The notes beneath the pieces are model-generated. The model had not been told where the DNA came from. It made no database searches and saw only the letters and a program-made list of their open reading frames with translations. Both the position numbers and the translations under genes were made by a program. Positions 14,666 through 63,507 of a DNA stretch of 64,000 nt are shown piece after piece. Source of the stretch: an uncultured Clostridia bacterium (lineage in GTDB: Bacteria; Bacillota; Clostridia; Christensenellales; Borkfalkiaceae). The stretch is from positions 414 through 64,413 of the forward strand of contig CAMGEK010000001.1 in assembly GCA_946055105.1 (NCBI GenBank), given 5' to 3'. Position 1 is the stretch's first letter, and each line of letters begins with the position of its first letter.

Positions 14666-14666
14666 T

Positions 14667-16118: not shown

Positions 16119-16121
16119 GAG

Positions 16122-18477: not shown

Positions 18478-18511
18478 CGCCGACGGCGAACCATACACAG
18501 GAGAAAACGGA

Positions 18512-19696: not shown

Positions 19697-19757
19697 CCAT
19701 CGCGCGACGCGTCGGCAGGCGGCGCGTTGAGAAATCGGAGCAAATGAGGTAAACGGT

Positions 19758-21032: not shown

Positions 21033-21035
21033 GAG

Positions 21036-24725: not shown

Positions 24726-24745
24726 AATTTGGGGGAGAGAAACGT

Positions 24746-45985: not shown

Positions 45986-46021
45986 AAACGGAAGGATTCG
46001 GCGGATGCTTCCGTTTTTTTG
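45986..46021 (+). terminator. intrinsic terminator after the ALDH gene
   Basis: The stem AAAACGGAAG...CTTCCGTTTT is followed by a T-run. Confidence 0.7.
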
Positions 46022-46082: not shown

Positions 46083-46111
46083 TTGACAAACGCGACGGAT
46101 CGTGATATAAT
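46083..46111 (+). promoter_or_regulatory. consensus sigma-A promoter of the fructan locus
   Basis: TTGACA (46083-46088), 17 nt, then TGaTATAAT (-10 at 46106-46111). Confidence 0.7.
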
Positions 46112-46322: not shown

Positions 46323-49300
46323 ATGAAGAAAAAGAGCTTAGGAATTTTAATGCTTGCGCTCGCGGCGGCGTGTACGTTGGGAGCGGGAATCGGCGCGAAC
46401 GCGCCGCAGGTTTCGGCGGCGGAAGGCGTCGGAATGCAGAGCGACGGGGATTCGTTCCTGCTCGGTAGCGCGTCTTATGCGGCGGGCGAAAGTTTCGTCT
46501 ATACGGCGACGGCGTATTTCAACAACGCCGAAAGTCAGGCGGCGGGCATCGCGTTCGGCGCGGCGCAGGGCGATCATTATTGGGTATTCAACGTCGATCG
46601 GGCGGAGAATCGAGTGAAACTGCTCTATTTCACGGGGAGCGAAGGGAATTACTCGGCGACGGAGTTGAAGAGCGATTGGTATCTCGGCAACGATTTGTTG
46701 ACGGAGAGCGAAAGATCGCTCGTCAATCCGAAAGTCAGGACGATTCCGAGCGTTCAGCTCAAAGTCGTGGTCTCTGCGGAAATCGACGGCGTGTATGCGG
46801 AGTTCTATGCGGACAATATCCGTCGTTTCGGTTTGGACGAGGCGATTCGTCTGAACGACCTGCAACCGGGGATTACCTATACGGGCGGCGCGTTGGGATT
46901 TAACGTCTTTCACGCGGACGTGCGGTTCGATTCCGTCTACGACGGAGCGAGCGACTATTCCTACTATACGGAATTGTACCGTCAGCAATACCATTTTTCG
47001 CAGTACGCGCATTGGAACAACGATCCGAACGGATTGGTGTATTACGACGGATATTATCACGTTTTCTATCAGCATAATCCCTTCGGCAACACCTGGGGAG
47101 ACATGTATTGGGGACACGCGCGGAGCGCCGATCTCGCGCATTGGGAGCTGTTGCCTGTCTGCCTCTTTCCCGACGCGGATTACCGCGGGAACACGGCAGG
47201 GTTTATGTGGTCGGGTTCCGCGATGGTATACCGTCGCGGCATGAGCGCCGCGATCGACGACGCGGGCTGGTTTTCGGGCGAGAGCGGACTGATCGCGTTT
47301 TACACGCGCGACGGCGCGATGCAGGATCAGATGATCATGTCGAGCGACGACGGCGGCATGACCTGGACGAAACGGAAACTCATCGAACAGCAGATCGCGA
47401 CGGGCGCGGGTTCGGGCAGGACGGACTGCCGAGATCCCAAGGTGTTCCCCGTCGAAACTTCGGGCGAAAGCGTGACGCGCTGGGGCATGATTCTTTCGGG
47501 AATGGCGACGAACGATATTTGGTTTTTGCAATCGGAAGATCTTCTGAATTGGTCTTACGCGGGCGGATTCAAAGCGGAGAAACCCGAGTGTCCCGATCTT
47601 GTCACCGTGCGGGCGGACGACGGAACGGACAAGACGGTCATATCTTTGACGGGGCGGCGGTATCTCGTCGGGAGAGTCGCCTATGAGGGCGGCATGATCA
47701 GATTTTATGCGACGGTCGGGGGCGAAGAGCGGGATCTGAGCGCGCTCGACCTGAGCGAAATTCCCTTCGAGACGATGGATTACGGTCCCGATTCGTATGC
47801 GACGCAGACCTTTTATATCGACGACGCAACGAGCGCGTATCACGGAAAAACCGTGTCGCTGTCCTGGTTCAGCGGCGTGCCCGGCGCGGCGGCGTCGATC
47901 GAGAGCGGTTCGCTTGCGGCGCTCCGCAAGGTCTGGAACGGCGGCGGAATGACCATTCCCGTCGTCTGGGGACTGAAATCTTCGGACGGGAAATACCTGC
48001 TGACGCAGACCCCGATCGTGAAAGATTCCGACGCCTTCGATAAGACGCAGCTGTATGCAGCCTCGGACGTTGTCGTGCGGGCGGGAGAAAATCTGCTTGC
48101 GGGCGTCGAGGGACGGAATACGGAGATCGCGGCGACGGTGGAAAATCCGAACGGCGTTCCCGTCGCGTTCCGCGTGCGTACGGGCGGAGAGGAATATACG
48201 GAGATCGGCTGGAACCAAACGGAGGGTTACTACGTCGACCGCAGTCATACCTCCGACGGCGGACTTACGATGAACGCCTACCGCGCCCGCTTCACGTCGG
48301 GTGCGCGACCGTCCGAAACGCAGACCTTCTATCTTCTCGTGGACGACGGCGGGCTGGAAGTTTTCTGCGAGGACTTCACCGTACCCTTCTACGTTCTGAC
48401 GTTTGCCTTCCCCGCGTCCACGGGACTGAGTTTCACGGCGGACGGCGAGGCGACGGTGACGAGCCTGACGGTAAACGAAATCGGAAGCGTATGGCGCGAC
48501 GGTACGGCGGTCGGCGAAGATACGGCGCTCTACCTGACTTCGGAATCGTTGGAACTCGATCTGACGATCACGAAAGAAAAGGAGATTCTGGCATACTCGA
48601 TTGCGGGCGGCGAAATCGCATGGAGCGTCGAGAGCGGCGAGGACGTCGTCGCGTTGACGGAGACGGCGCAGGGCGTGCGCGTCACGGCGGTCGGCGGCGG
48701 CGAAGCGGTGATCAAAGCTTCGTGTATGGGCGATGAAAAATTCGTTACCGTGACGGTGGAAAGCGGCGCGATCGGATCCGATCTCTCGTTTTCGCAGTCG
48801 GGAATCCTCTCGGGCGAATGGCTGATGACGGAAAACGGCGTCGTCGCGAAACAGCCGAACGGCGACGGATTCATTCTGACGAACGCGAGCGGGAGAGACT
48901 TCGTCTATACGGTGAGATGCAATCTCGGCGAGGGAGTCGCGGCGGCGGTCGTATTCCGCGCGACGGCGGACTTATCCGAGTACTATATCGCAAATTACGA
49001 CAGAAACGAAAACATCGTGAAGCTGTGGTCGGCGCGCCGCGAACTCATGCGCGTTCCTGCGGGAGAGGTGAATTCCTCCGACTTTCTTCTCTCCGTTACG
49101 GCGGTCGGAAACAACGTAAAAGTCAGTCTCAACGGCAGACAGATGATCGACGTGACGGACACGGACGAGGGCGCGCCGACGGAAGGGCTTCTGGGGCTCA
49201 ACGTGTGCGCGACGCGTCAACCGGCGGTGTTCTCGATGATTTCTTACCGTTCGGCGAGAGAGACCTATACGGGCGGATCGCTGAGCGTGAAAGGGGATTC

Positions 49301-49877
49301 GGAACAATACATATCGGCAGTCTATAACCGTACGCTCGGAAACGTGCGCGTCAACGCGGCGTTCTATCAGGTTTCCGGAAGGACGATCACGATCGGGGAA
49401 GCGTATTTCTCGTCGTTGAAAGTCGGCGTGTACGAGTTTTACGCGGTCGGGAGCGATACGACGTTTGAGTTCGTCGTCGAGGTTCTGTCGACGTCGGGCA
49501 AGCCGATCTATTCGTCCGAAATCGATTACGGATGCGACGCGGCGATCTACACGGGCGCGGCGGAGATCGGAACGGTCAAGGTAAACGGCAGAGCGCTCGC
49601 CGCGACGGAATACGAAATCAAAAACGGAACGGTCACGATCTATGCGAGCGCGTTGACGGTCGGAGAAAACGTGGTGCAGCTTTCGGATACGCTGACGGTG
49701 ACGGTCACGGTCAACGAACAAGCCGTGATCGGGGAAGCGACGGAATCGGGCGGCGGGCTCGGCACGGGCGCGATCGTCGGGATCTCGGTCGGCTGTTCCG
49801 CGGCGGGACTTGCGGCGATCGGGACGGTCGTATTCCTCGCGGTACGCAGGAGGAGAAAACATGGCGACGACGATTAA
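46323..49877 (+). CDS. surface-anchored GH32 fructan hydrolase (levanase/inulinase type), multidomain, 1184 aa
   Basis: It has a signal peptide and the GH32 motifs HWNNDPNG, CRDPKVF and PECPDL. There are two concanavalin/LamG-like modules resembling levanase CBMs (GDSFLL.. and GDGFILT..GLNV). There is an Ig-like segment (VTAVGGGEAVIKASC). A C-terminal TM plus RRRRKH stop-transfer sequence is present. Confidence 0.85.
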   Translation: MKKKSLGILMLALAAACTLGAGIGANAPQVSAAEGVGMQSDGDSFLLGSASYAAGESFVYTATAYFNNAESQAAGIAFGAAQGDHYWVFNVDRAENRVKLLYFTGSEGNYSATELKSDWYLGNDLLTESERSLVNPKVRTIPSVQLKVVVSAEIDGVYAEFYADNIRRFGLDEAIRLNDLQPGITYTGGALGFNVFHADVRFDSVYDGASDYSYYTELYRQQYHFSQYAHWNNDPNGLVYYDGYYHVFYQHNPFGNTWGDMYWGHARSADLAHWELLPVCLFPDADYRGNTAGFMWSGSAMVYRRGMSAAIDDAGWFSGESGLIAFYTRDGAMQDQMIMSSDDGGMTWTKRKLIEQQIATGAGSGRTDCRDPKVFPVETSGESVTRWGMILSGMATNDIWFLQSEDLLNWSYAGGFKAEKPECPDLVTVRADDGTDKTVISLTGRRYLVGRVAYEGGMIRFYATVGGEERDLSALDLSEIPFETMDYGPDSYATQTFYIDDATSAYHGKTVSLSWFSGVPGAAASIESGSLAALRKVWNGGGMTIPVVWGLKSSDGKYLLTQTPIVKDSDAFDKTQLYAASDVVVRAGENLLAGVEGRNTEIAATVENPNGVPVAFRVRTGGEEYTEIGWNQTEGYYVDRSHTSDGGLTMNAYRARFTSGARPSETQTFYLLVDDGGLEVFCEDFTVPFYVLTFAFPASTGLSFTADGEATVTSLTVNEIGSVWRDGTAVGEDTALYLTSESLELDLTITKEKEILAYSIAGGEIAWSVESGEDVVALTETAQGVRVTAVGGGEAVIKASCMGDEKFVTVTVESGAIGSDLSFSQSGILSGEWLMTENGVVAKQPNGDGFILTNASGRDFVYTVRCNLGEGVAAAVVFRATADLSEYYIANYDRNENIVKLWSARRELMRVPAGEVNSSDFLLSVTAVGNNVKVSLNGRQMIDVTDTDEGAPTEGLLGLNVCATRQPAVFSMISYRSARETYTGGSLSVKGDSEQYISAVYNRTLGNVRVNAAFYQVSGRTITIGEAYFSSLKVGVYEFYAVGSDTTFEFVVEVLSTSGKPIYSSEIDYGCDAAIYTGAAEIGTVKVNGRALAATEYEIKNGTVTIYASALTVGENVVQLSDTLTVTVTVNEQAVIGEATESGGGLGTGAIVGISVGCSAAGLAAIGTVVFLAVRRRRKHGDDD

Positions 49878-50832
49878 GGACGTGGCGAAACGCGCGGGCG
49901 TGGGCGTGGGAACGGTATCCCGCGTTCTGAACGGAGAAAAGAACGTCAATCCCGCGACGCAGGAATTGGTTCAGAACGCCATACGGGAGCTGAATTATAT
50001 CCCCAACCGCATGGCGTCAAGATTGCGGAAAAACTCTTCAAACATCATCGCGTTGCTCGTTCCCGTCATCGACCACCCTTTCTTCGCGCAGTTCGCCTAT
50101 TACGCGGAGGACGAGGCGGATCGGTTCGGATATTCGCTGTTGTTGGTCTCGTCGCAGCGTCGGATCTGCAAAGAGAGCGAAATCATCGCGCGGATCCGCA
50201 GGCGGGAAGTGGACGGCGCGCTGTTTCTGACGCACTTTGAACACGATCCCGAGGAAATGGAGGGCTGTGCGATCGTATCGGTGGACCGTCCGTTGGGGAA
50301 CGGGATTCCGTACGTTACTTCGGATAATTACGAGGCGACGAAAAAGGCGGTCGAATACCTGATCTCCCGCGGTTGCAGGAACGTCGGCTACGTCGGAACG
50401 AAACCGCTGATGGCTTCGGAAGTGTTGCGGCGGGAGGAGGCGTATCGGGAGGTCATGGCGGAACACGGTATGCCGTGCAGGATCTCCAACGACGTCACGT
50501 TGCACGGCGAAGAGAGCAAGGTCGTAAACGAATTTTTTGAGAAATTTCCCGACGTGGACGGCGTGTTCGCTTCGGGATATACGATGGCGCAGGCGTTGTA
50601 CGAAACGGCGGTCGGTCGCGGACGGAGGATTCCCGAAGAGATGCAGATCGTCTCCTACGACGGAGCGTTCTATCAATGGGGAAACAATCATTCGCTCACC
50701 TGCGTGGAACAGCCCGTCGAACAGATGGCGCGGACGGCGGTGAAGTTGCTGATGCGGAAGATCGAGGGGGAAGACGCGCCCGTGAGAACGATGCTTCAAA
50801 CGACGTTTTCCGTCGGTTCTTCCACCAGATAA
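49861..50832 (+). CDS. LacI family transcriptional regulator
   Basis: It has MATTIKDVAKRAGVGVGTVSRVLNG (HTH) and a periplasmic-binding-protein-like core. It overlaps the GH32 gene by 17 nt. Confidence 0.9.
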   Translation: MATTIKDVAKRAGVGVGTVSRVLNGEKNVNPATQELVQNAIRELNYIPNRMASRLRKNSSNIIALLVPVIDHPFFAQFAYYAEDEADRFGYSLLLVSSQRRICKESEIIARIRRREVDGALFLTHFEHDPEEMEGCAIVSVDRPLGNGIPYVTSDNYEATKKAVEYLISRGCRNVGYVGTKPLMASEVLRREEAYREVMAEHGMPCRISNDVTLHGEESKVVNEFFEKFPDVDGVFASGYTMAQALYETAVGRGRRIPEEMQIVSYDGAFYQWGNNHSLTCVEQPVEQMARTAVKLLMRKIEGEDAPVRTMLQTTFSVGSSTR

Positions 50833-50886
50833 CGGTACGAAGCGAGAAATCGGTTCAGATAAAAAAGAGAAAGAAAGGAGGATATT

Positions 50887-52209
50887 ATGAGAAACTTTAT
50901 CAAGAAAGCGGTAGCATTGGCGTTGTCCTGTACGGCGGCGCTGGGATTGGCGGGGTGCGGCGAAACGCCCGACGCCGAAACGGGCGCGGTGGACGAGAGC
51001 GGCAACACCGTCGTGAAAGTCATGTTCCACGTGGACGAATCCAGCGCGGAGGGAAAGGCGTACAAACAGCGCGTCTCCGCCTTCAATACGGACTATAAGA
51101 GCGAGAATATCAAGATCTCCGCGACCTTCAAGGCGCGCGACGACAACAGCATGACGGGGTACGATACCGAGCTTTCGTCCATGCTCAACGCGGGAAATCT
51201 GCCCGACATCATCACGTTCGACGCGCCCAACTGCGCCAGCTATGCCGCAACGGGACTGTTGTACGATCTGAGTTCGCTCGTCCCGCAGGACGTTCAGGAC
51301 GACTTTATTTCCCTCAACGAGTACGACGGAAAGCTGTACGGACTTCCCATTCAGGAGTCGAGCGCGGGATTTTTCTATAACAAAGCGTTGCTCGATCAGG
51401 CGGGCGTAAACGTTTCCGGTTACACCGTGGAGAATCCCTGGACCTTCGATCAGTTCAAAGAGGTCTGCCAAAAACTCAAAAACGCCGGCATTCAGGCGGT
51501 CGATATGCGGTTGCGTGAAAATACGGGCGAACAGTCCACCTATCTGCTCTATCCGTTCATTTACGCGGCGGGCGGTCAGTTCGTCTCCCAAGACGGGTTC
51601 ACCGCGACGGGTTATTTTAACGGGACGGGCGCCGAAAGCGGATTCCGGTTCATCAAAGATCTGGTGGACGCGCAATATACCTCGTTTACGGTCGGCGCGG
51701 ACAGCAATTCCGATTTCATGAACGGCAAGGTCGGACTCTACCTCTCGTCCGGCTGGACGATTCCCGACATCAGGGAAAAATACGAATCCAACTTCCCCTC
51801 AGGCTGGGGAATCCTGCCCTATCCTAAGGGAACGGTAGCGGCGAGCGCGACGGGGAGCTGGTCGTTCGGGATCACGGACAATCAGCACACGGATAAGTCG
51901 AAGATCATCAAGGCGCTTCTGTATCTCGTAACGCCCGAAAGCTCCAAAGCGATCACGAACGCGACGGGCATGATCCCCGCGTTGAAATCGGTCGAAACCA
52001 ACTATGCGGCGGGTTCTCCCGAGAGCGTGCTCCGGAACCAGTTGCAGACGACGGGCAAAGAGCGTCCCGTGACGGTCGGCTATCCGAAGTTCTCCACTTG
52101 TTTCAGAAACGTGCTGACCGCGATCAACGGCGGAAAATCGGTTGCCGAAGCGTTAAACACCGAGGCGACTTCCTTGCAACAGGAACTGAATAAACTCAAA
52201 GGGGTGTAA
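50887..52209 (+). CDS. ABC sugar transporter substrate-binding lipoprotein
   Basis: It has the lipobox LGLAGC and is 440 aa, consistent with family-1 SBP. It lies upstream of two permease genes. Confidence 0.85.
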   Translation: MRNFIKKAVALALSCTAALGLAGCGETPDAETGAVDESGNTVVKVMFHVDESSAEGKAYKQRVSAFNTDYKSENIKISATFKARDDNSMTGYDTELSSMLNAGNLPDIITFDAPNCASYAATGLLYDLSSLVPQDVQDDFISLNEYDGKLYGLPIQESSAGFFYNKALLDQAGVNVSGYTVENPWTFDQFKEVCQKLKNAGIQAVDMRLRENTGEQSTYLLYPFIYAAGGQFVSQDGFTATGYFNGTGAESGFRFIKDLVDAQYTSFTVGADSNSDFMNGKVGLYLSSGWTIPDIREKYESNFPSGWGILPYPKGTVAASATGSWSFGITDNQHTDKSKIIKALLYLVTPESSKAITNATGMIPALKSVETNYAAGSPESVLRNQLQTTGKERPVTVGYPKFSTCFRNVLTAINGGKSVAEALNTEATSLQQELNKLKGV

Positions 52210-52213
52210 CGCC

Positions 52214-53188
52214 ATGTGGGGATCCGTTTTACTCATTCTCGCCTGCTTCGTCGCGTTGTTCGTTGCGTTCTCCGTAAAGGACGTCGTGGCGATGAAAAAG
52301 AGGGGCGGAAAATATCGGATCAAGACGACGATGGCAGCCTACGGCATGTTGGCTCCCGCAATCGTCCTCGCGTTCATCTTCGTCATGCTGCCGATCATTT
52401 ATTCGCTCGGATACTCGTTTACGGACTTCTATCTGTTGAAGCCGAACGACATTCATTTCTGCATGCTGGATAATTTCAAAGATATCTTCCGCGAAATCGG
52501 CGCAAAGGGCGACATGTACCACGCGATCGTCAATACGGCGATCTTCGTGGTGTGCGTCGTACCGTTGCAGATCGGACTCGCGTTGGGGCTCGCCCTGTTC
52601 GTCAACCGCAAACTGCGCGCCGTGGGAATCTTCAAAGTCTGTTTCTTTGCGCCCGTCGTCATTTCGCTGACCATTACGGCGTATCTGTGGATGCAGATTT
52701 TGTCTCCCTCCCAATACGGTCTGCTCAATTCCTTTCTGGGATTGTTCGGCGCGGAGCCGCAGGACTTTCTGAATAATCAGAAGACGGCGATGCTCTGGAT
52801 CGTCCTGATGAGCGCATGGCAGGGTTGCGGATATCAGATGCTGATCTTCCTGTCGGGACTGACGAATATCCGCAAAGAATTGTACGAAGCGGCTTCGCTG
52901 GACGGCGCGACGGCGTGGGATCAGTTCCTGCACATTACCTGTCCCGGACTGCGCTCCACGTTCCTGTTCATCGTGATCACGGTATTTGTCGGCGCGTGCC
53001 GCGTAATGGTTCAGCCGATGGTGTTGACGGGGTATCAGACGCATACGATGACGCTGAGTTATTACATGTACGTTCAGGGCTATACCTACCGTTGGGTGGG
53101 ATATTCGTCCGCGGTCGCCCTTCTCATGACCATCGTCATCGGATCGATTACCTTGATTCAGAGAAGAGTATTAAGGGAGAAAGACTGA
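52214..53188 (+). CDS. ABC sugar transporter permease (MalF/UgpA-like)
   Basis: It has six or more TM segments and an EAA-type loop (YEAASLDGAT.WDQF). The alternative start at ATG 52292 would remove an extra N-terminal TM. Confidence 0.85.
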   Translation: MWGSVLLILACFVALFVAFSVKDVVAMKKRGGKYRIKTTMAAYGMLAPAIVLAFIFVMLPIIYSLGYSFTDFYLLKPNDIHFCMLDNFKDIFREIGAKGDMYHAIVNTAIFVVCVVPLQIGLALGLALFVNRKLRAVGIFKVCFFAPVVISLTITAYLWMQILSPSQYGLLNSFLGLFGAEPQDFLNNQKTAMLWIVLMSAWQGCGYQMLIFLSGLTNIRKELYEAASLDGATAWDQFLHITCPGLRSTFLFIVITVFVGACRVMVQPMVLTGYQTHTMTLSYYMYVQGYTYRWVGYSSAVALLMTIVIGSITLIQRRVLREKD

Positions 53189-53189
53189 T

Positions 53190-54119
53190 ATGGAAGAGAT
53201 CTTAACCGAAACAATCGCGACGGAAGCGAAGAGAACGCACCGCCGCGCGCAACGGTCGAAAATCGTCCGTCTGACGGTATTTTACGTCGCGGGCGTCGTG
53301 ATGGCGCTCGTGTTCCTGTTCCCGCTCATCTATATGCTGGCGACGTCGGGAAAGAGCGAGATCACCTTGGCGGCGGAGGCGGGAAGCGTCTCCATGTTCC
53401 TGCCCGATTTCTCCTCGATGTCCACGATGTTCGATAACTATAAAAAGGTCATCGTATCGTACGGAATCTGGAAAAACGCGCTGAACAGCTTGACGTACGC
53501 CGCCGTCGTGATCGTGCTCAATATCATCGTGAACGGACTTGCGGGCTACGTCATGGCGAAGTTCGATTTTCCGGGTAAAGGGCTGCTGTCCTTTCTCATT
53601 CTGTTCCTCATCATCGTTCCCGTGGAGACGAGCATCATTCCGCTCTATTCCATCGTGACGGTGTTGTTGCAACTCAAAGGCACGGCTTCCGTTCTGGCGG
53701 TGATTCTTCCCGCCGCGATTAGCGTGTTCAATATCTTTCTGTTCATTCAATTCTTCGAGAGCATTCCCAAGGAATACGAAGAAGCGGCGCGGCTGGACGG
53801 CGCGGGAAACCTCAGAATCTTCTTCTCGATGATCCTGCCCCTCTCCAAACCCATCGTCGCGACGGTTGCGACCTTCTGTTTCATCGGCGTCTGGAACGAC
53901 TACGTCTGGCCGCTCATGGTGCTGCCGTATGCGGGAGAAGGGGAATGGTCGCTCTATCCCATACAGGCGGTGCTCACGTCGATCAAGACGATCCGCGGCG
54001 TTACGACGGGCGAAGTCATGGCGTCCCTCGTCATTGCGAGCGTGCCGATCTTCATCGTGTACGTCGTGGCGCAGAAGTATATCGTGCAGGGCTTCGGTTC
54101 GGCGGGATTGAAAATGTAA
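53190..54119 (+). CDS. ABC sugar transporter permease (MalG/UgpE-like)
   Basis: It has the EAA loop YEEAARLDGAGNLRIFFSMILP and six TM segments. Confidence 0.85.
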   Translation: MEEILTETIATEAKRTHRRAQRSKIVRLTVFYVAGVVMALVFLFPLIYMLATSGKSEITLAAEAGSVSMFLPDFSSMSTMFDNYKKVIVSYGIWKNALNSLTYAAVVIVLNIIVNGLAGYVMAKFDFPGKGLLSFLILFLIIVPVETSIIPLYSIVTVLLQLKGTASVLAVILPAAISVFNIFLFIQFFESIPKEYEEAARLDGAGNLRIFFSMILPLSKPIVATVATFCFIGVWNDYVWPLMVLPYAGEGEWSLYPIQAVLTSIKTIRGVTTGEVMASLVIASVPIFIVYVVAQKYIVQGFGSAGLKM

Positions 54120-54153
54120 CGTCCGATCGGAAGTTCAAAAAAAGAGGTGGAAA

Positions 54154-56655
54154 ATGAAACAATCGACAAAAATCACGGCGGTCGTCACGGCGTGCGCGAT
54201 GAGTTTCGCGGCGCTGGCGCTCGGCGGCTGTAACGACGAGGAGATCCAGGCTCCCGCCGGAAACGATCTTGTGCTGTCCTATTCGTTCGACGAGGCGTCG
54301 GGCACAACGGTGAAAGAATCGGTCGCGGGCACGGACTCCAAAATCGCATACGTTTTTAATACGGAAAATCAGGCGAATCTGCTCAAACCCGCTTCCGAGC
54401 CTCTGCGGCGGAAGGGGGTGAGCGGAAACGCGCTCTATCTGGACGGAAATTCGACGTACGTCGCGAACGACGACTTCCGACAGCCGAAGAACGCGTTTAC
54501 GGTCTCGGCATGGGTGGCTCCGCGCGTATTTGAAAATCTTCCGAACTACGAGAGCGTCTATGCGGCGGGGAATACCCGACTGACCTCCATCGTCAATAAA
54601 GGCGACATCGATATGGGCGAGGGATTCCTGCTCGGATACGGCAGGCTCGGTCTCTGGGGAATCCAGCTCGCGGTCTACAATAAGGATACGGACGAGGAGA
54701 GCGTCCTTTCGTTCTACGATCCGATCAACGCGCTTTCGCTGTACGAGTGGTCGCACGTTGCGGTGAGTTACGACGGCAAGACGGGCTATATCGCGCTGTT
54801 TTATAACGGCGTCCGCTCCTATGAAGCGGTGATTCCCGAACTTGCGAATACCGAAATCGTTCTCTCCGACGAACCGCTGTATATCGGAAGATACGCGAAT
54901 CCGACGAAAATTTACGGTCTGGATACGCAGATGGTGGCGGGACTTTTGGACGAGGTGCGCATTTACGACGTTTCGCTCTCGCCCAAGCAGACGGAGGCTC
55001 TGTATCTCGAAGGCGCGGAAAACGGCGCGCATCCCGCTCTGAATTGGGAGGACGTCGCGCTGGATTCCTCGGTATACGAGGGCGACCGTTACCGCCCGCA
55101 GTATCATGCGATCCCGCCTGCGCTGTGGATGAACGAGCCGCATTCGCCGTTCTATTATCAAGGCAGATACCATGTGTTCTATCAGCACAATCCGGCAGGC
55201 CCGTATTGGGCGCAGATCCGTTGGGGGCATCTCGTCAGCGACGACATGATTCATTGGGAATACGTCAAAGACGCCGTAGTGCCGACGGCGGGCGTCTGCC
55301 CCGAGGGGGTATGGACGGGCGGAGCGTGCATCGGTCCCGACGGAACGCCGTGGCTCGCGATTACGGCGGGCACGAATACTTCGACGGTGAGCGGTCAGAA
55401 CGTCGCGTTCGCGCATCCCGCCGATCCGTCCGATCCCGATCTCGCGGATTGGGTGGTGGAGGACAGCGTCTCTCTCGCCCAGCCTGCGGGAGGCGAAGGC
55501 GAAATCGGTCAGTTCCGCGATCCGTTCGTCTGGTACGACGACGGCGTGTACTATATGATGATTTCCACGTCGATTCCGGGCGCGGGCGGTTCCGCAAACG
55601 TCTATACTTCCACCGACATGCGGGATTGGACTTATAAGGGCTATCTGTTTGAATGCGATTATAACGCCTATCCCGAACAGGGAATCCATTGGGAATGCGT
55701 CGTGATGTTGCCCATATCGAAGAAAGACGGCACGGGAACGAAATACGTTCTGTTCGACTGTCCTCAATACCCCGCGGACGCGCCGGTTCATACCTATTAT
55801 TGGATCGGTCAGTTCGATAAAAACGCCTGCCGTTTCGTTGCGGACGATCCCAAGCCGCGCTTATTCGACCTCGGCGGAATCTTCAACGGGCAGAACGGGT
55901 ACTGTTTCCTGACGGAAGAAGATATTGCGGCGGGAAAGACCTCTTACGATCAGGGGCGTTCGGTGGTGTACGCCATCAGTCAGGGGAAGGAGCTCGGCAC
56001 CACGCACAACTACTATTCGGGCTGGGCGCACAACTTCACGATGCCTGTGGAACTGTATCTCTCCGACGACGGAAACAACATTATTCGCGAGCCGATCCGC
56101 GAGCTCTCGTCGCTGCGCGAGGAGACGCTTTACGAGTACGTCGGAACGGGCAGAAACGCCGCGGAACTCAACGTCGCGATCTCTTCGGTGCGCGGAGATC
56201 TGTTGGAAATCGAGCTGGAATTCACGCTTTCGCCTGCGGCGGAAACGTTCCGGAGCGGGCTCAGCGTGCGCTACAATCCCACGACGAACAGCCTCGGTAC
56301 GGAGCGCACGGACGTCGTGTTCGGAAACGGAGGCGTGATGATCGACAGAACGCAGACCTCTCTGCAATACAGGAGTCTGGATTCGTCGGCGTTATGGGAG
56401 ACGTCGGCTCGCGCGTATTCGGTCAGAATTCTGCTCGACCGTTCGATGCTGGAAGTTTACGTAAACGGAATCATGAGCTTTACGACGCACGTCTATCCCA
56501 AGTACGGCGATTCGGACTATCTGCGTTTCTTCGACGAGGGAGCGGGCATGTCCGTGACGAAATTCATCGTCAGACGGCTTGGCAGCGCGTACACGGAGAC
56601 CGTAACGCCCGCTTATTACGGGAACACGGGAAATCTTTCCGACACGGGGGTGTAA
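54154..56655 (+). CDS. extracellular lipoprotein: LamG-like domain plus GH32 domain with an atypical WMNEPH motif
   Basis: It has the lipobox-like ALGGC. The LamG-type segment reads NALYLDGNS..AFTVSAWV..LLDEVRIYD. The GH32 core has YHAIPPALWMNEPHSP, FRDPFVW and HWECV. Confidence 0.8.
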   Translation: MKQSTKITAVVTACAMSFAALALGGCNDEEIQAPAGNDLVLSYSFDEASGTTVKESVAGTDSKIAYVFNTENQANLLKPASEPLRRKGVSGNALYLDGNSTYVANDDFRQPKNAFTVSAWVAPRVFENLPNYESVYAAGNTRLTSIVNKGDIDMGEGFLLGYGRLGLWGIQLAVYNKDTDEESVLSFYDPINALSLYEWSHVAVSYDGKTGYIALFYNGVRSYEAVIPELANTEIVLSDEPLYIGRYANPTKIYGLDTQMVAGLLDEVRIYDVSLSPKQTEALYLEGAENGAHPALNWEDVALDSSVYEGDRYRPQYHAIPPALWMNEPHSPFYYQGRYHVFYQHNPAGPYWAQIRWGHLVSDDMIHWEYVKDAVVPTAGVCPEGVWTGGACIGPDGTPWLAITAGTNTSTVSGQNVAFAHPADPSDPDLADWVVEDSVSLAQPAGGEGEIGQFRDPFVWYDDGVYYMMISTSIPGAGGSANVYTSTDMRDWTYKGYLFECDYNAYPEQGIHWECVVMLPISKKDGTGTKYVLFDCPQYPADAPVHTYYWIGQFDKNACRFVADDPKPRLFDLGGIFNGQNGYCFLTEEDIAAGKTSYDQGRSVVYAISQGKELGTTHNYYSGWAHNFTMPVELYLSDDGNNIIREPIRELSSLREETLYEYVGTGRNAAELNVAISSVRGDLLEIELEFTLSPAAETFRSGLSVRYNPTTNSLGTERTDVVFGNGGVMIDRTQTSLQYRSLDSSALWETSARAYSVRILLDRSMLEVYVNGIMSFTTHVYPKYGDSDYLRFFDEGAGMSVTKFIVRRLGSAYTETVTPAYYGNTGNLSDTGV

Positions 56656-56656
56656 G

Positions 56657-59167
56657 ATGAGAAAACTATGGACGTTAGGAATCGGCGTCGTGGCGGCGGC
56701 ATGTTGCGTCGCGGGCGCGGTAGGTTGCGATTCGTCTCCGGAAAAAGAGGCTCAGACGGGCGTTCCGACCGAAATCGTCAACGGCGGGTTCGAGAGCGCC
56801 GATCTTTCGGGCTGGACGGTCGAGTACGGAACCGCGTTTTCCGACGACAGCGTGTCCTCGCAAAAGACGTTTGAGTATGCGGATGACGAAAAGCACAATC
56901 AGATCCCCGTGAACGCGACGGGGAATTGGTATCTGAGCGGAAAGGGCTTTGAAGGGAAGTTTTCGGTCGCCCGCACGGGCGCGATCCGTTCGTCTACGTT
57001 CCGCCTGACGGGAGACGGCGTGCTCAGCATGAAACTTGCGGGCGGCGCGCCCGTGGAGGAAAGGGGCGGAAAGCTCGTCAAGAAACCGACGGAGACGGTT
57101 TGTTACGTCGGCGTCTACCGCGCTTCGGACGACCGCCTGATCGCGCGGCAGACGAACGAATATTTCGTTAAACACACGGAATCGTACGTCATCGTGTCCA
57201 AGTACGAATCGGACGTCTATAACACGGACAATTTTTACAGATACGAGCTCGATCTCTCCGAGTATCTCGGCGAGGATCTGTATCTGCGCGTCGTGGATAA
57301 CGATCAGAGCAACTATTACGGTTATATCAGCGTAGACGATATTCGCACGAACGGCGACGCGGAGGCGCAGACGGAGGGCGCGTTCTTCACCAAAACGCGT
57401 TCCTACGTTCAGGACGCGGAGGCGCCGGAGAACGAACTTCCGAACGGCGGATTTGAAACGGGTTCTCTGGCGGGTTGGACGATTGTCAGCGGCGAGGCGT
57501 TCTCCCACGAGGGCGTCAACGCCGAAAGCGTGTGGTGGAACGAAAACATCACCTATTCCCGCGACGGAGACTATCATTACGGATTCTACAATCCGACCGC
57601 GGTCGGCGTCATGCGCTCGTCCGAGTTCGTGCTGGGCGGGTCGGGATATATCAGCTATAAGTTAGGCGGCTGTAAGGACAATGCAAAGACCTATCTCCGC
57701 TTTCTGTTGAAGACGGAAGAGGGCGACAGGGAGATCCTGCGCGCGTCCAACTATAAATTCCGCGATTTCCAATTCCCTTACGTGGCGAACGGCATGCGTC
57801 TTCTGAACATGGTGCAGTATTACGCCGATTTCTCGGCGTATCTCGGACAGACGCTCTATATCGAAGCGGTGGACGAGAACGCGAGCGCGGACGACCTCGG
57901 TTGCATGACGTTGGACAGTATTCAGACTTATTGGCAGGGCACGCCCTCGTGGAGCGATTTCCGCGCGGCGTACGAAGTGAAGTTCGACGCCGAAACGGAG
58001 ATCGTCAGCCCCTGTCAGGTTCTCAACGGGAACTTTGAAACGGGCGATCTGACGGGCTGGACGGCGAGCTGGACGGACGAGAACGACAGAATCGGTTACG
58101 TTTCCTCCGAATCCGTCTGGTGGGGAACGTTCTCCTATAACAAGGGCGGGAACTATCTGTTCACGGGCATCTCCGACGAGGGCAAGACGGGCACGCTGAC
58201 GAGTTCGGAATTCGAAGTCGGCGGCTGCGGATGGATGACGTTCCGTCTCGGCGGAGGCGGCGATCCCGCGAAGTGCTACGTTTCCGTGCTCGACGCGGAG
58301 ACGGGCGAAGAGCTTGCGCGCTATGCGAACGCGTATTTCTTCGATCCGGGATTCACCGATCTCGTCAATCGCGGCACGAATCTCGCGAACATGGTGCATT
58401 ACAGAGCGGATCTTTCGGCGTTTGTCGGACGGACGGTTCGGTTGCAGATCGTCGACAACGCGACGGGCGGCTGGGGGCTTGTCTGCGCGGACAGTTTCAG
58501 AACGTACTATCAGACGGAAGCGGCTTTGCCCGACGGAACGTATCTTGCCCGCAATATTCTGCCGCGGGAAACGCTCGGTGAGGGAAGCGAATATCAGGCG
58601 CTCAACGGGAACTTCGAGACGGGCGATCTGACGGGCTGGACGGCGACGGGAGACGCCTTTATCGGAATTTCTCACGAAGAAGTCTGGTGGAACGAATGGT
58701 ATTCGTTCAACAAAGAGGGAGAATATTTCCTGAGCGGCTGGGCGGGCAACGAGAGCGCGACGGGCACGCTTACAAGCTCGGAGTTCACGGTTGGCGGCTG
58801 CGGTTGGATCACCTTCCGTCTCGGCGGCGGGAAAGATACTTCGCTCTGCAACGTGAGTATCGTCGACGCGGAGACGGGCGAAACGCTCGCGATTTACGGC
58901 AATACGCTCTTCCGCGATCTGATCAAACCCGGGTGCTACTATTACGGCGGAAAGCCGATCGATCTTTCAAAGGACGGTTCGTATCTTGCGAACATGGCGC
59001 TCTATCGGGCGGATCTGTCGGCGTTCGCGGGCAGACGCGTGAAAATCGTTCTCACCGATCGGGCGACGGAAGATTGGGGCTTGCTGTTCGCGGACGAGTT
59101 TATCACCTATTACGCGACGGAGGCGGAAATTCCCGTCGGCGCGACGGTCGCGATCGATCTGAAATGA
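56657..59167 (+). CDS. lipoprotein made of four tandem beta-sandwich-like modules, no catalytic motif (candidate fructan-binding protein)
   Basis: It has the lipobox-like AVGC. The four repeats start at aa 42, 263, 457 and 650 (nt 56780, 57443, 58025, 58604). Each follows the pattern NG.FE(T/S)..L.GWT ... VWW ... G(T/V)(L/M).SS.F.(L/V)GG.G.(I/M).(F/Y).LGG ... Y.ADLS.(F/Y).G ... VD ... D.(F/I).T(Y/N). Confidence 0.8.
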   Translation: MRKLWTLGIGVVAAACCVAGAVGCDSSPEKEAQTGVPTEIVNGGFESADLSGWTVEYGTAFSDDSVSSQKTFEYADDEKHNQIPVNATGNWYLSGKGFEGKFSVARTGAIRSSTFRLTGDGVLSMKLAGGAPVEERGGKLVKKPTETVCYVGVYRASDDRLIARQTNEYFVKHTESYVIVSKYESDVYNTDNFYRYELDLSEYLGEDLYLRVVDNDQSNYYGYISVDDIRTNGDAEAQTEGAFFTKTRSYVQDAEAPENELPNGGFETGSLAGWTIVSGEAFSHEGVNAESVWWNENITYSRDGDYHYGFYNPTAVGVMRSSEFVLGGSGYISYKLGGCKDNAKTYLRFLLKTEEGDREILRASNYKFRDFQFPYVANGMRLLNMVQYYADFSAYLGQTLYIEAVDENASADDLGCMTLDSIQTYWQGTPSWSDFRAAYEVKFDAETEIVSPCQVLNGNFETGDLTGWTASWTDENDRIGYVSSESVWWGTFSYNKGGNYLFTGISDEGKTGTLTSSEFEVGGCGWMTFRLGGGGDPAKCYVSVLDAETGEELARYANAYFFDPGFTDLVNRGTNLANMVHYRADLSAFVGRTVRLQIVDNATGGWGLVCADSFRTYYQTEAALPDGTYLARNILPRETLGEGSEYQALNGNFETGDLTGWTATGDAFIGISHEEVWWNEWYSFNKEGEYFLSGWAGNESATGTLTSSEFTVGGCGWITFRLGGGKDTSLCNVSIVDAETGETLAIYGNTLFRDLIKPGCYYYGGKPIDLSKDGSYLANMALYRADLSAFAGRRVKIVLTDRATEDWGLLFADEFITYYATEAEIPVGATVAIDLK

Positions 59168-59216
59168 CCGTTCGGAGATAAGAAAGGAAAAACGTACGGA
59201 AAGGAAGTGATTGTTT

Positions 59217-60572
59217 ATGACGGAGACGGAAACGGAGAGAGTTCCGAAATTTCATATCACGGGGGAACGCGGTTGGATCAACGATCCCAACGGGCTCGCG
59301 TATTTTCGGGGAGAGTACCATGTGTTCTTTCAGTACTATCCCTACGCGACGCATTGGGGACCGATGCATTGGGGGCACGTCGCGAGCAAAGACCTGCGGC
59401 ATTGGCGGAGGCTTCCCGTCGCGCTCTTTCCCGATCAGCCTTGCGATCGGGACGGATGCTTTTCGGGCAGCGCGATCGTCTGGAACGATCGACTGTGGCT
59501 GCTCTATACGGGCTTTACCGAGAACGGCGGCGGGGAGAAGATCCGTCAGCTGCAATGTCTCGCTTCGAGCGAGGACGGCGAGCATTTCGTCAAACACGGA
59601 ATCGTAATCGGGGAAGAGGATCTGCCGAAGGAGTATTGCCCTTGGGATTTCCGCGATCCGAAAGTATGGAAACGCGACGACGGCTTTTATTGCGTCGTCG
59701 CCGCGCGCTATCGCGAAGGCAGAGGGCGCGTGTTGCTCTTCCGTTCGGACGATCTCATGAAATGGAAGTTCGTCGGCGATCTGTTCGGCGAGGACAGCCG
59801 CGGCACGATGACGGAGTGTCCCGATCTGCTCGAAGACGAGGGACTTTTGACGGTATGCGAGCAATTTCAGCCGCGCGAGGGCAAGACGCATCTGAACGTG
59901 CATTCCTCGCGTTGGTACACGGGCAGGTTCGACGGCGCGGTTGGTCGGTTTTATCCCGAAAAAGAGGGGATCGTCGATTACGGGTTTGATTTTTACGCCC
60001 AGCAGACGTTCTGCAACGCGCCCGTCATGATCGGCTGGCTGGATATGTGGGACAGAAACAACCCGTCCGCGCGGTACGGATTCGCGGGCATGCTGACCGT
60101 TCCCCGCAAGATCGGGGTGCGGAACGGCGAGCTTGTGCAGACGCCGATCGTCGACGGAAAGACGGTCGTGAGCGCGACGGCGGACGGAACACTGACCGAT
60201 CGGGCGACGACGGGAATTCTGCGTATCGCCGTCAAGGGCTTGAAGTCGTTCCGTCTCTCTCTGCGGAAGGGCGAAGGGTGCGAAACGACGCTCACGCTCG
60301 GCGACGGGGAATGGATCTTCGACCGTTCGCGGTCGGGCGAGCCGATCGCGGGCGTGGAAAAGGACGAGGACAGTCTGGCGGGAATCCGCCGCATGCCCCG
60401 TTCGGACGGAGGGGAGACGGAACTGACGGTCGTTCTGGATCGTTATTCCGTGGAGATCTTTATCGACGGAAAGGCGTTGTCGGCGGCGATCTATCCCCCT
60501 GCGGAAGCGGACGCAATCGAACTGTGCGCGACCGCGGACGAATGTCGGTACGAGCGGTCGGAAATAGAATAG
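59217..60572 (+). CDS. cytoplasmic GH32 beta-fructofuranosidase (sucrose-6-P hydrolase/exo-fructosidase type)
   Basis: It has no signal peptide. It has WINDPNG, FRDPKVW and ECPDL motifs. ATG 59217 follows the SD GAAAGGAAG, and TTG 59211 is the ORF-track start. Confidence 0.85.
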   Translation: MTETETERVPKFHITGERGWINDPNGLAYFRGEYHVFFQYYPYATHWGPMHWGHVASKDLRHWRRLPVALFPDQPCDRDGCFSGSAIVWNDRLWLLYTGFTENGGGEKIRQLQCLASSEDGEHFVKHGIVIGEEDLPKEYCPWDFRDPKVWKRDDGFYCVVAARYREGRGRVLLFRSDDLMKWKFVGDLFGEDSRGTMTECPDLLEDEGLLTVCEQFQPREGKTHLNVHSSRWYTGRFDGAVGRFYPEKEGIVDYGFDFYAQQTFCNAPVMIGWLDMWDRNNPSARYGFAGMLTVPRKIGVRNGELVQTPIVDGKTVVSATADGTLTDRATTGILRIAVKGLKSFRLSLRKGEGCETTLTLGDGEWIFDRSRSGEPIAGVEKDEDSLAGIRRMPRSDGGETELTVVLDRYSVEIFIDGKALSAAIYPPAEADAIELCATADECRYERSEIE

Positions 60573-60813: not shown

Positions 60814-63507
60814 ATGATGATGGCAAAGAGAAAGATGACTTTAATGGCGTTATCCGTACTCGGCGCCGCCACGTTGACGGCGGGCGCAACGGCATGGAAC
60901 GCGCTTTCCGCAAATGCGGAAGACGTGTTGTTGGCGAACACGATGCCGTTTTCGATGGCGTACGGAGCGAGCGCGCGCGTCGGCGGAAGCGAAGCGTACA
61001 ACGGAATCCGCTTTGTCGCCGAGATCGCGAAAAGCGACTACGAGGCGCTGGAAGCGGACGCGGATTACGACGCGTCGTACGGCATGTTGATCGCGCCGCT
61101 CAGCTACGTTCAGGAAAACCCGTTTACCGTGGAGAACGTATTCGGCGCGTCTGCGGTCTATAATTGGGCGACCGTCGAAGACGACGGAACCGTAACGCCT
61201 CCCGCGGAAGAGATCGGGAAGAAGAGAATCTCCAATCTTGCTTACGACGAATTGCCCGCAGCGGGGGACGTTTACGAAATCAGAGGATCTCTGACGAAGA
61301 TCAGGGAAGAGAACCTTCTCGTGGAGTTCACGGGTCGCGCGTACGTGAAACTTACGCCGAAGAGCGGCGAGGGCGAGACGATCTACCGCATGGCGGACTA
61401 TGCGGAGGGAAGCTTGGAAAACAACGTACGCTCCGTCGTGTACGTTGCGCAGCGCGCCTGCGAAGATCCGTCCTCGAAACTGACCGAAACGCAGAAAGCG
61501 CAGCTCAAAGGCGACTATATCGACAAGGCGGTAGCGCAGAACCCGACGACGGAGTATACCGTTGAAACGTACGTCAAAGACGGAGATCAGAAAATACTGA
61601 TCAACCGCGAGACGAAAACGGGCACGCTCGGCGAAACGGTCGATTGTGCAACGCCGCAGGACGGCTTCACCGTTTCCGAGGAATCTACGGCGAGCGGTCA
61701 GGTGTACGCGAACGGCAGATTGAATCTTTCCGTCGTCTACGAATATACCGCCGCCGTCAGTGGTTACCGCGTGCAGAACGGCGGGTTTGAAACGGGCGAT
61801 CTCACGGGCTGGACGTTGACAAAGGGAGAAGACAAAATCGCCATCGGCGCGGTCAGCGGCGCGTCCAACTATTGGATAGACGATAATGAACGTGCGGAAG
61901 GGTATTCTTTCAGGAAAGACGGGGAATATCTGTTCAGCTGTTACGCGGTCGACGGCGGAGACGGCGCGGTCGGTACGTTGACGAGCGCTCCGTTCACGGT
62001 CGGCGGTTCGGGCTGGATCACGTTCAAGCTCGGCGGCGCGAAAAACAGCGATCAGGTCTGGATCGACGTCGTAAAAGCGAGCGACGGAAGCATACTCAGG
62101 CGTTTCGGCAACCCGAATTGGCAGGAGCGGACGGACGGCGTAAAGAGCGGCTGCACCATGAACGCCTATAAAGCGGATTTGTCGGAATATCGCGGCGAAA
62201 CGGTCTATCTCCGTCTCGTGGACTATGCGACGGGCGACTACGGTCTGATTTTCGCCGACAGTTTTGAAACGTATTACTTCGCAGAACCTTCGTCGGAGTT
62301 CTTCACTTCGGCGACGGACGTGACCGAAAGAGCCGAAACGGTTTACGATCTGTACAACGGCGGTTTCGAGAAATCCGATCTTCGCGGCTGGACGAAAGTC
62401 GGGAAGATCGGCGACGTCTCTGGCGATTCCACTTATTGGGGGGATATTTCTTTCAAGAAAGACGGAACGTACCTGTTCAGCGGCTATGCGGCGGGACAGG
62501 AGGAAAAAGCAAAGGGCTCTTTGACGAGTTCGCCGTTTATCGTCGGCGGAAGCGGTTGGGTGACCTTCAAGCTCGGCGCGGCGAAGAACAGCGCGGAAAT
62601 GTACGTCGACGTCGTGGATTACTATTCGGGCGAAGTGCTCAGGCGTTTCGGCAACCGCCTGTGGCAGGACAGAGACGCAGTCAGAGGCTGTACGATGATC
62701 GCGTATCAGGCGGATTTGTCCGCATATCTTGGCAGAACGGTTTATTTCAACCTCGTCGACAACGCGGAAAGCGATTACGGTCTGTTCTTCGCCGACAGTT
62801 TCGTCACCAATCATCCCGAAGCTCCTTCGTCGGCGGACTTTGCGATTGCGCTGGATACGCGGCTCAACGTCGTGAACGGCGGATTCGAGACGGACGATAT
62901 GAGCGGATGGACGAACAGCGGAGTCGGCTTTATGAACAGCGCGACGACGTATTGGGAAACAGATGCGAATTTCTTCGATCAGGACGGAAAGACCGTGCAA
63001 TACTTCTTGCAGGACGGCAACCGTTTCCTGATGACGAACGAAGGCGGAGACGCCGGAACCGGTACGGTCCGTTCTTCCACGTTCACGTTGGGAGGAGACG
63101 GCTGGATCAGCTTCAAATTTGGCGCGGCCGGAAATCAGGACTGTTACGTTCGGATTTGTCTGGATGACGGAACGGAAATTGCCAAAATTACGAACGACGC
63201 GTTTGCCGATCCTACGCTTGCAATGGTGCTGCTGCGCCGCTTTGTAAATCTCAGCGACTATATCGGGCAGAGTATGTACGTCGAATTGGTCGATAACGCT
63301 ACGTCAGGCTTCGGATTCCTGACGTTCGACGCCCTTGCGGTCAGCCTCACGAACGCGGAAGCGCAGGCGATGCTCGGTTACGATAAAGCGCAGTATGCGT
63401 CTTACCGTCAGGACGTGATCGATAGCGAAGTTTCGATGGGAGCAAGCGCCAAAGCTATCGTTACTGCGATCCAAGACTATTATAAGAATCTGACCTTGAC
63501 GGTCTGA
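60814..63507 (+). CDS. secreted protein with three copies of the same module as 56657-59167 plus a distinct ~320-aa N-terminal region
   Basis: It has a signal peptide (..ALSANA/ED). The modules start at aa 322, 515 and 688 (nt 61777, 62356, 62875), with the same NGGFETGDLTGWT ... GTLTS.PF.VGGSGW(I/V)TFKLG ... Y.ADLS.Y.G ... LVD ... ADSF pattern. I saw no anchor motif. Confidence 0.8.
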   Translation: MMMAKRKMTLMALSVLGAATLTAGATAWNALSANAEDVLLANTMPFSMAYGASARVGGSEAYNGIRFVAEIAKSDYEALEADADYDASYGMLIAPLSYVQENPFTVENVFGASAVYNWATVEDDGTVTPPAEEIGKKRISNLAYDELPAAGDVYEIRGSLTKIREENLLVEFTGRAYVKLTPKSGEGETIYRMADYAEGSLENNVRSVVYVAQRACEDPSSKLTETQKAQLKGDYIDKAVAQNPTTEYTVETYVKDGDQKILINRETKTGTLGETVDCATPQDGFTVSEESTASGQVYANGRLNLSVVYEYTAAVSGYRVQNGGFETGDLTGWTLTKGEDKIAIGAVSGASNYWIDDNERAEGYSFRKDGEYLFSCYAVDGGDGAVGTLTSAPFTVGGSGWITFKLGGAKNSDQVWIDVVKASDGSILRRFGNPNWQERTDGVKSGCTMNAYKADLSEYRGETVYLRLVDYATGDYGLIFADSFETYYFAEPSSEFFTSATDVTERAETVYDLYNGGFEKSDLRGWTKVGKIGDVSGDSTYWGDISFKKDGTYLFSGYAAGQEEKAKGSLTSSPFIVGGSGWVTFKLGAAKNSAEMYVDVVDYYSGEVLRRFGNRLWQDRDAVRGCTMIAYQADLSAYLGRTVYFNLVDNAESDYGLFFADSFVTNHPEAPSSADFAIALDTRLNVVNGGFETDDMSGWTNSGVGFMNSATTYWETDANFFDQDGKTVQYFLQDGNRFLMTNEGGDAGTGTVRSSTFTLGGDGWISFKFGAAGNQDCYVRICLDDGTEIAKITNDAFADPTLAMVLLRRFVNLSDYIGQSMYVELVDNATSGFGFLTFDALAVSLTNAEAQAMLGYDKAQYASYRQDVIDSEVSMGASAKAIVTAIQDYYKNLTLTV

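Follow-up and report, generated by a model that had tools for sequence, protein, structure and literature searches.

What does a protein with no catalytic signature contribute to a locus of glycoside hydrolases, transporters, and a regulator? The question is posed by a stretch of 64,000 nucleotides (the window) from an uncultured Clostridia bacterium, in which an open reading frame (ORF) on the forward strand at 56657-59167 lies between two genes of glycoside hydrolase family GH32, GH32_833 upstream (54154-56655) and GH32_453 downstream (59211-60572). An initial annotation had described the product as a lipoprotein of four tandem modules, situated between GH32 genes and free of any GH32 or other catalytic signature, and had proposed that it captures polymer. 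The structural part of this description holds: translation, lipobox, MAFFT alignment, and BLASTP agree on an 836-amino acid (aa) lipoprotein with four tandem modules. On sequence grounds, the module belongs to the CAZy carbohydrate-binding module (CBM) family CBM38. The protein, here called CBM38x4, is probably a non-catalytic surface lipoprotein that uses four CBM38 beta-sandwiches for multivalent fructan capture.

The CBM38x4 gene opens with a signal peptide (56657-56728) that, as read from the sequence, closes with the lipobox A-V-G-C24, the Cys codon lying at 56726-56728. The N-terminus reads MRKLWTLGIGVVAAACCVAGAVGC, followed by DSS, and AVGC24 fits the lipobox pattern of bacterial lipoproteins, [LVI..][ASTVI][GAS]C. 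Four tandem, colinear copies of a 190-220 aa module follow on the same strand: module 1 (M1; aa 38-258, 56768-57430), M2 (aa 259-452, 57431-58012), M3 (aa 453-645, 58013-58591), and M4 (aa 646-836, 58592-59164). The modules share 28-59% identity in the MAFFT alignment. Their pairwise BLASTP E-values, computed for a nominal database of 1e6 residues, are 3.6e-59 for M3/M4, 1.6e-27 for M2/M3, 7.5e-24 for M2/M4, approximately 3e-14 for M1/M2 and M1/M3, and 5e-4 for M1/M4, a similarity far beyond chance. The predicted module starts (N42, N263, N457, and N650) coincide with an Asn that is invariant in 32 orthologues. The conserved motifs listed by the initial annotation (NG.FE..L.GWT, G.L.SS.F.(L/V)GG.G, Y.ADLS, and VD....WG....D.F.TY) are present in the modules, except that the VWW patch is found in M2-M4 and missing from the divergent M1. 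Module 1 also carries a 13-residue insertion relative to M2-M4 and, lacking the Trp pair, may have a different role.

The closest characterized counterparts of the module are the repeats R1 and R2 of the cycloinulo-oligosaccharide fructanotransferases (CFTases) of Niallia circulans and Paenibacillus polymyxa, to which M2-M4 align by BLASTP over 173-196 residues. M2 is 43-45% identical to R1/R2 (E about 1e-37 to 1e-39), M3 is 45-47% identical to R1/R2 of the N. circulans enzyme (E 3e-41 and 2e-45), and M4 is 44-47% identical (E about 1e-43 to 1e-44); for M1, the values are 32-35% (E 1e-16 to 1e-18). A profile built solely from the window's four modules matches the N. circulans CFTase, whose identity under BAA24360.1/O52973 was confirmed, at residues 58-242, 243-421, 424-539, and 1332-1494 (independent E-values of 1.5e-57, 8e-59, 2e-9, and 2e-18, in that order), and the P. 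polymyxa CFTase at 76-260, 261-385, and 1169-1333. As summarized in PMC10076258 with reference to Lee, Kim & Choi 2004, the stretch from residue 32 to 389 in the P. macerans CFTase constitutes CBM38 (formerly X39), which is made up of a pair of beta-sandwich domains and has low micromolar affinity for inulin/levan. The profile-match positions in the CFTases fall inside this region. The same profile finds modules at 39-225, 223-404, 406-580, and 1331-1494 in P0135, a 1495-aa protein with Laminin_G_3, GH32N, and GH32C domains that is 61% identical to both the N. circulans (O52973/BAA24360.1) and P. polymyxa CFTases. The CBM38 positions in a Defluviitalea protein of dbCAN architecture CBM38-CBM38-CBM38-GH32-CBM38 (PMC7355431) are, in relative terms, equivalent to these four matches. 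A 14-sequence alignment places common motifs in the window modules and the CFTase repeats, and the Trp pair conserved in M2-M4 and in R1/R2 is a candidate sugar platform. In the 836-aa protein, this patch corresponds to W293/W294, W488/W489, and W678.

The module is thus assigned to CBM38 because the window profile and BLASTP match the CFTase repeats, and because of the region delimited in PMC10076258 and the architecture in PMC7355431. The initial annotation had likened the module to an accessory domain fused to some GH32 enzymes, which proves apt, the domain being the CBM38 repeat that flanks the CFTase core. The confident match is to a fructan-binding family and not to a non-fructan CBM or an enzyme family. 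It had not been able to name the family by eye; of the two CBM families it had suggested for comparison, CBM38 is borne out by the CFTase repeats and CBM66 is not: the CBM66-type model PF06439 (3keto-disac_hyd) matches neither the 836-aa protein nor any single module, even at E<=10. Hidden Markov model (HMM) searches of the whole protein and of each module against Pfam gave no match at E<=0.01 and none usable up to E 10. Neither Pfam (whole protein and single modules) nor NCBIfam (whole protein) detected a catalytic family. CBM_4_9 (PF02018) reached only E 0.11, its 13.3 bits falling short of the cutoff of 25.9, in a 20-residue match on the N-terminal NG.FE motif; the likeness of CBM38 modules to CBM_4_9 is at the fold level only. 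The NCBIfam scan of the protein yielded nothing beyond a sub-threshold match to NTTRR-F1 (NF033675; 42.9 bits against a cutoff of 70), which spans positions 3-23 (21 residues) of a 155-position model and lies on NGGFE..GW.

Sequence searches of the Protein Data Bank (PDB) with the 836-aa protein and with the module profile found no relative, and CBM38 is without a solved structure in the PDB copy searched. The fold class was therefore taken from AlphaFold2 (AF2) and Foldseek. The AF2 model of the whole protein (32 orthologues) has a mean predicted local distance difference test score (pLDDT) of 79.8, rising to approximately 85-95 in M3 and M4, and comprises four all-beta beta-sandwich modules. 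When Foldseek compared this model with the PDB, the informative single-domain matches (12-16% identity) were jelly-roll CBMs, namely a CBM that binds porphyran (8xmz, TM-score 0.66), CBM61 (2xon, 0.62), CBM16 (2zey, 0.61), CBM4-2 (2y6k, 0.60), and CBM27 (1pmh). The predicted fold of the 836-aa protein is thus the beta-sandwich expected of CBM38. The top matches to multi-domain models (reelin, Cry toxins, and enteropeptidase) are uninformative, with TM-scores <0.2 that stem from domain arrangement.

CBM38x4 is widely conserved, as is its genetic context. Among 964 homologues, the full-length four-module proteins are 804-860 aa long, share 53-67% identity with the window protein, and without exception carry the annotation hypothetical. 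With each GTDB species represented by a single genome, scanning located 122 loci. The best 80 of these 122 belong to uncultured gut metagenome-assembled genomes from roe deer, sheep, goat, buffalo, reindeer, mouse, and human (Hadza), labeled Clostridia, Christensenellaceae, Christensenella, Catabacter, Borkfalkiaceae, or Eubacteriales. Three contigs with the fructan locus (L015, L052, and L073) were deposited in bins named Akkermansia muciniphila, Hallerella sp., and Sodaliphilus sp.; these cases most likely reflect binning contamination, not horizontal transfer. In a set of 83 loci, the CBM38x4 gene follows the GH32_833 orthologue wherever the upstream flank is available, and the recurrent order is GH32-LacI-SBP-permease-permease-GH32-CBM38x4-(0-2 further CBM38 genes)-GH32, where SBP is a solute-binding protein. 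The window's exact order up to GH32_453 recurs in 30 of the 83, and about 30 have one or two extra CBM38 genes. The lipobox is at the expected position in all 32 aligned orthologues, with the rest of the signal peptide and the linker only 24% conserved. M2 is the best conserved module (68%), and the numbers of invariant columns in M1-M4 are 56, 60, 36, and 29, respectively. CBM38 homology, together with the strict GH32 synteny, suggests that the 836-aa protein binds fructan.

Searched against 1.84 billion representative proteins, the module profile matched 1750 at E<=1e-3, of which 289 reached E<=1e-30, with 1 to 10 copies per protein. Among the top 150 representatives, 45 are built of nothing but modules, and the N-terminus is lipobox-like in 26 of the 39 beginning with Met; to judge by these architectures, stand-alone CBM38 lipoproteins are a sizeable, unannotated class. 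An unassigned spacer of approximately 250 aa recurs between modules in long CBM38 proteins (P0124, P0136, P0144, P0148, and others), and one 3900-aa protein contains as many as 10 modules.

The surrounding genes constitute a Gram-positive polysaccharide utilization locus, with three GH32 genes, an ATP-binding cassette (ABC) importer composed of an SBP and two permeases, and a LacI regulator, all on the forward strand at 46323-60572. The first gene (46323-49877) encodes GH32_1184, an extracellular enzyme of 1184 aa assigned by Pfam, which has a signal peptide and is anchored by a C-terminal transmembrane segment (…VVFLAVRRRRKH) whose helix is followed by an RRRRKH stop-transfer tail. GH32_1184 also shows a weak 3keto-disac_hyd (CBM66-like) match (E 1.7e-5, just under the cutoff) and a weak Shr-like HID match, an unusual combination for GH32. 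The LacI-family regulator (49810-50832; Pfam LacI and Peripla_BP_3) overlaps the end of GH32_1184 by 68 nucleotides (49810-49877) in its longest ORF, which starts with TTG at 49810. Its real start is probably further downstream because the overlap is only 17 nucleotides in the orthologous loci L001 and L002. The ABC sugar importer (50887-54119) consists of the SBP (50887-52209; Pfam SBP_bac_8/SBP_bac_1) and permeases at 52214-53188 and 53190-54119 (BPD_transp_1). The next gene, at 54154-56655, encodes GH32_833, an 833-aa lipoprotein with the lipobox LGGC and Laminin_G_3, GH32N, and GH32C domains (Pfam). Its stop codon ends one base before the start of CBM38x4, the junction being TAA-g-ATG. Downstream, GH32_453 (453 aa; 59211-60572) has a GH32N domain (Pfam E 3e-86), no signal peptide, and an NCBIfam scrB_fam score of 333 bits, slightly under the 356-bit cutoff. 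This protein, whose likely ATG start is 59217, is probably a cytoplasmic beta-fructosidase.

A sigma-70-type sequence at 46083-46111 on the forward strand, approximately 210 nucleotides upstream of the GH32_1184 gene, is a plausible candidate for the locus promoter. It combines TTGACA, a 17-nucleotide spacer, an extended -10 TG, and TATAAT, matching the consensus at 12 of 12 positions, and a terminator-like hairpin (46000-46015) stands just before it. Elsewhere in the window, housekeeping genes at 14600-26400 and 33803-35014 (a purine biosynthesis cluster with PurF-, PurD-, PurH-, and PurL-like genes, formate-tetrahydrofolate ligase, and the spore-germination gene GerAC) indicate a chromosomal region of a spore-forming Firmicute.

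The only other window ORF with a CBM38 module lies at 60814-63507 on the forward strand and encodes a second secreted protein, 897 aa long. Its three modules map to nucleotides 61765-62343, 62344-62871, and 62863-63435 (HMM independent E-values of 1e-43, 3e-41, and 1e-26). They are preceded by a signal peptide without a lipobox and an N-terminal domain of approximately 270 aa and followed by a C-terminal helical hairpin (aa 847-892). The AF2 model has a mean pLDDT of 78.5, with 85-90 in the N-terminal domain. That domain has no Pfam match and only three database relatives, and Foldseek gave no informative match for it, the CBM38 modules dominating the search.

With these components, fructan capture by CBM38x4 would proceed as follows. 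After Sec export, the protein would be lipidated at Cys24, as the conserved lipobox suggests, and the four-module chain would stretch outward from the membrane. Soluble fructan (inulin, possibly levan or graminan) would be bound multivalently and thereby concentrated at the cell surface, where the captured polymer would meet the anchored enzymes, the lipoprotein GH32_833 and the transmembrane GH32_1184. The oligosaccharide products would be taken up by the co-encoded ABC importer and hydrolyzed in the cytoplasm by GH32_453, with LacI presumably regulating the locus.

Several considerations weigh against this interpretation. Fructan binding by this protein, or by any stand-alone CBM38 array, is inferred from homology. 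The experimental basis of CBM38, as presented in PMC10076258, is essentially one 2004 study of one enzyme, and membership in the family was judged here against the N. circulans and P. polymyxa CFTases, not the founding P. macerans sequence. Module 1 may not bind sugar, given that it lacks the WW patch common to M2-M4 and CFTase R1/R2. A lipoprotein on the membrane of a monoderm cell must also extend across the wall to the polymer, and how long and flexible the chain is can be read only from a model with a predicted TM-score of 0.48. Finally, ligand specificity may be uneven across the family because its wider membership also includes fusions to non-fructan domains (GH125, hyaluronate-lyase N-beta, and GDSL lipase).

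The alternative that survives best concerns GH32_833. Residues 35-825 of this protein align to residues 561-1318 of the N. circulans CFTase with 35-36% identity over approximately 790 aa (E 2e-133); the best solved GH32 structure scores only 137.6 bits. The aligned CFTase segment coincides exactly with the core that the CBM38 repeats flank, and it covers the whole mature length of GH32_833, which contains no CBM38 itself. Fused versions of LamG, GH32, and CBM38 also occur in Clostridia (for example, Anaerocellum P0140), and Laminin_G_3, GH32N, and GH32C were found together by Pfam in 12 of 32 long profile matches. Since GH32_833 is colinear with the CFTase core and its gene adjoins that of CBM38x4, the two proteins look like a CFTase-type protein divided into a catalytic and a binding lipoprotein. 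CBM38x4 could then be an obligate non-covalent subunit of GH32_833, rebuilding a CFTase-type holoenzyme on the membrane and controlling the activity or product spectrum of GH32_833, possibly including cyclofructan formation. The flanking of the CFTase core by CBM38 modules, the lipoprotein nature of both partners, and the constant adjacency of their genes (1 nucleotide apart in the window, 14 in L001 and L002) speak for such a subunit. However, CBMs usually work in cis by proximity without forming complexes, an identity of 35% does not establish transferase or cyclizing activity for GH32_833, and the Paenibacillus homologues retrieved bear no annotation more specific than GH32 protein. A subunit role is clearly the less probable option; it overlaps with free capture, and the two are compatible.

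A bolder extension, which we regard as rather improbable, is that GH32_833 and CBM38x4 reassemble non-covalently at the surface as a CFTase-type enzyme that serves selfish fructan harvest by uncultured gut Christensenellales-like Clostridia, possibly by converting inulin to cyclofructans that only they import. If so, this cyclofructan route would be the fructan counterpart of the cyclodextrin pathway, and the CBM38 array would be both the first Gram-positive fructan surface glycan-binding protein (SGBP) and an obligate enzyme subunit.

A different objection is that the modules have diverged toward a non-fructan target, such as a plant or host glycan or a cell surface, and that CBM38x4 is an adhesin sitting in a fructan locus by chance. 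The jelly-roll fold is generic and common to CBMs of many specificities, and the wider family has varied partners. Among 32 long homologues, Pfam detected GH125 (two proteins), the hyaluronate-lyase N-beta domain (one), and GDSL lipase (one), as well as Big_2 and Por_Secre_tail or SLH anchors. For the subfamily in the window, such divergence is decidedly unlikely because M2-M4 are 43-47% identical to inulin-binding CFTase repeats and because GH32 synteny holds almost without exception in 83 loci and in 122 or more species. Least credible of all is a structural spacer or wall-spanning stalk without a ligand, or a cryptic enzyme: module 1 is divergent and the protein unannotated in Pfam, but all four modules keep the family core, the aromatic motifs of M2-M4 are under purifying selection, there is no similarity to catalytic families, and the Foldseek matches are binding modules.

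Multivalent fructan capture by CBM38x4 would matter in several respects. Fructans (inulin, fructo-oligosaccharides, and grass levans) belong to the major carbohydrates of prebiotics and forage, and compared with the Sus-type systems of Bacteroides, surface polymer capture in Gram-positive gut bacteria is far less well understood. For CBM38, a family with a single 2004 study in the account of PMC10076258, no solved structure, and no Pfam model, the 836-aa protein offers a concrete and easily expressed target for determining structure and specificity. Stand-alone CBM38 could also serve as a marker for annotating fructan loci whose genes are now labeled "hypothetical protein," and GH32_833 and CBM38x4 form a natural fusion/fission pair for studying CBMs in trans. 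The literature searched treats CBM38 solely as an appendage of enzymes or tallies it in CAZyme tables. According to a 2023 paper, no fructan-binding domains other than CBM38 and CBM66 have been reported, and CBM38 is absent from a 2026 review of gut CBMs. As the family and its function are known, the module is not a new kind of domain, and CAZyme specialists will find the result no great surprise. The novelty lies in the architecture and its setting, namely a tetravalent non-catalytic CBM38 lipoprotein that is encoded apart from a CFTase-core-like GH32 but genetically linked to it and is conserved in many uncultured gut Clostridia.

Known systems resemble CBM38x4 in part. CBM66 of Bacillus subtilis SacC, which binds levan, is likewise a GH32-associated fructan-binding beta-sandwich but belongs to a different, PF06439-type family; in this locus, the weak CBM66-like match sits on GH32_1184 and not on the 836-aa protein. 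Other Firmicutes also display CBM-only surface proteins, among them the CBM proteins with which Ruminococcus bromii binds starch and the CBMs of cellulosomal scaffoldins, which hold polymer near cell-bound enzymes. These differ in their modules (CBM26/74 and CBM3), their ligands (starch and cellulose), and their attachment, which relies on cohesin-dockerin pairs and sortase anchoring. No fructan equivalent of such proteins was found in the literature searched.

The SGBPs of Bacteroidota (SusE/F-like, for example, in the levan locus of B. thetaiotaomicron) are likewise non-catalytic lipoproteins of tandem beta-sandwiches encoded beside a surface enzyme in a glycan locus, and SGBP-B of B. thetaiotaomicron (7kwb) is among the weak multi-domain Foldseek matches. 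Unlike these systems, the window system has no SusC/D, no outer membrane, and no sequence relationship to SGBPs, and import is assigned to an ABC transporter. CBM38x4 was not classed as a SusE/F-like SGBP, since the locus contains no SusC/D or SusE/F Pfam domains and GerAC points to a spore-forming Firmicute. The polymer-capture role proposed by the initial annotation is favored by CBM38 homology in the form of a CBM array. Its analogy with SusD/E/F is only functional because there is neither sequence relationship nor SusC/D in the locus.

The closest parallel remains the CFTases of P. macerans (CFC1), P. polymyxa, and Niallia/Bacillus circulans MCI-2554, whose modules belong to the same family (43-47% identity for M2-M4) and share with the window modules the motifs N.GFETGDLTGW, VWW, G.L.SS.F.LGG.GWI.F.LGG, ANM..Y.ADLS, and VD.A..DWG..FAD.F. 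CFTases and the window locus also have in common the association of CBM38 with a LamG and GH32 core. In the CFTases, which are secreted or SLH-anchored enzymes, the modules are covalently appended, two to three at the N-terminus and one at the C-terminus. Modules fused on both sides of a homologous LamG and GH32 core are found in Paenibacillus, Niallia, and some Clostridia, whereas in the window the four modules form a separate non-catalytic lipoprotein beside a GH32 core that is itself a lipoprotein without CBM38.

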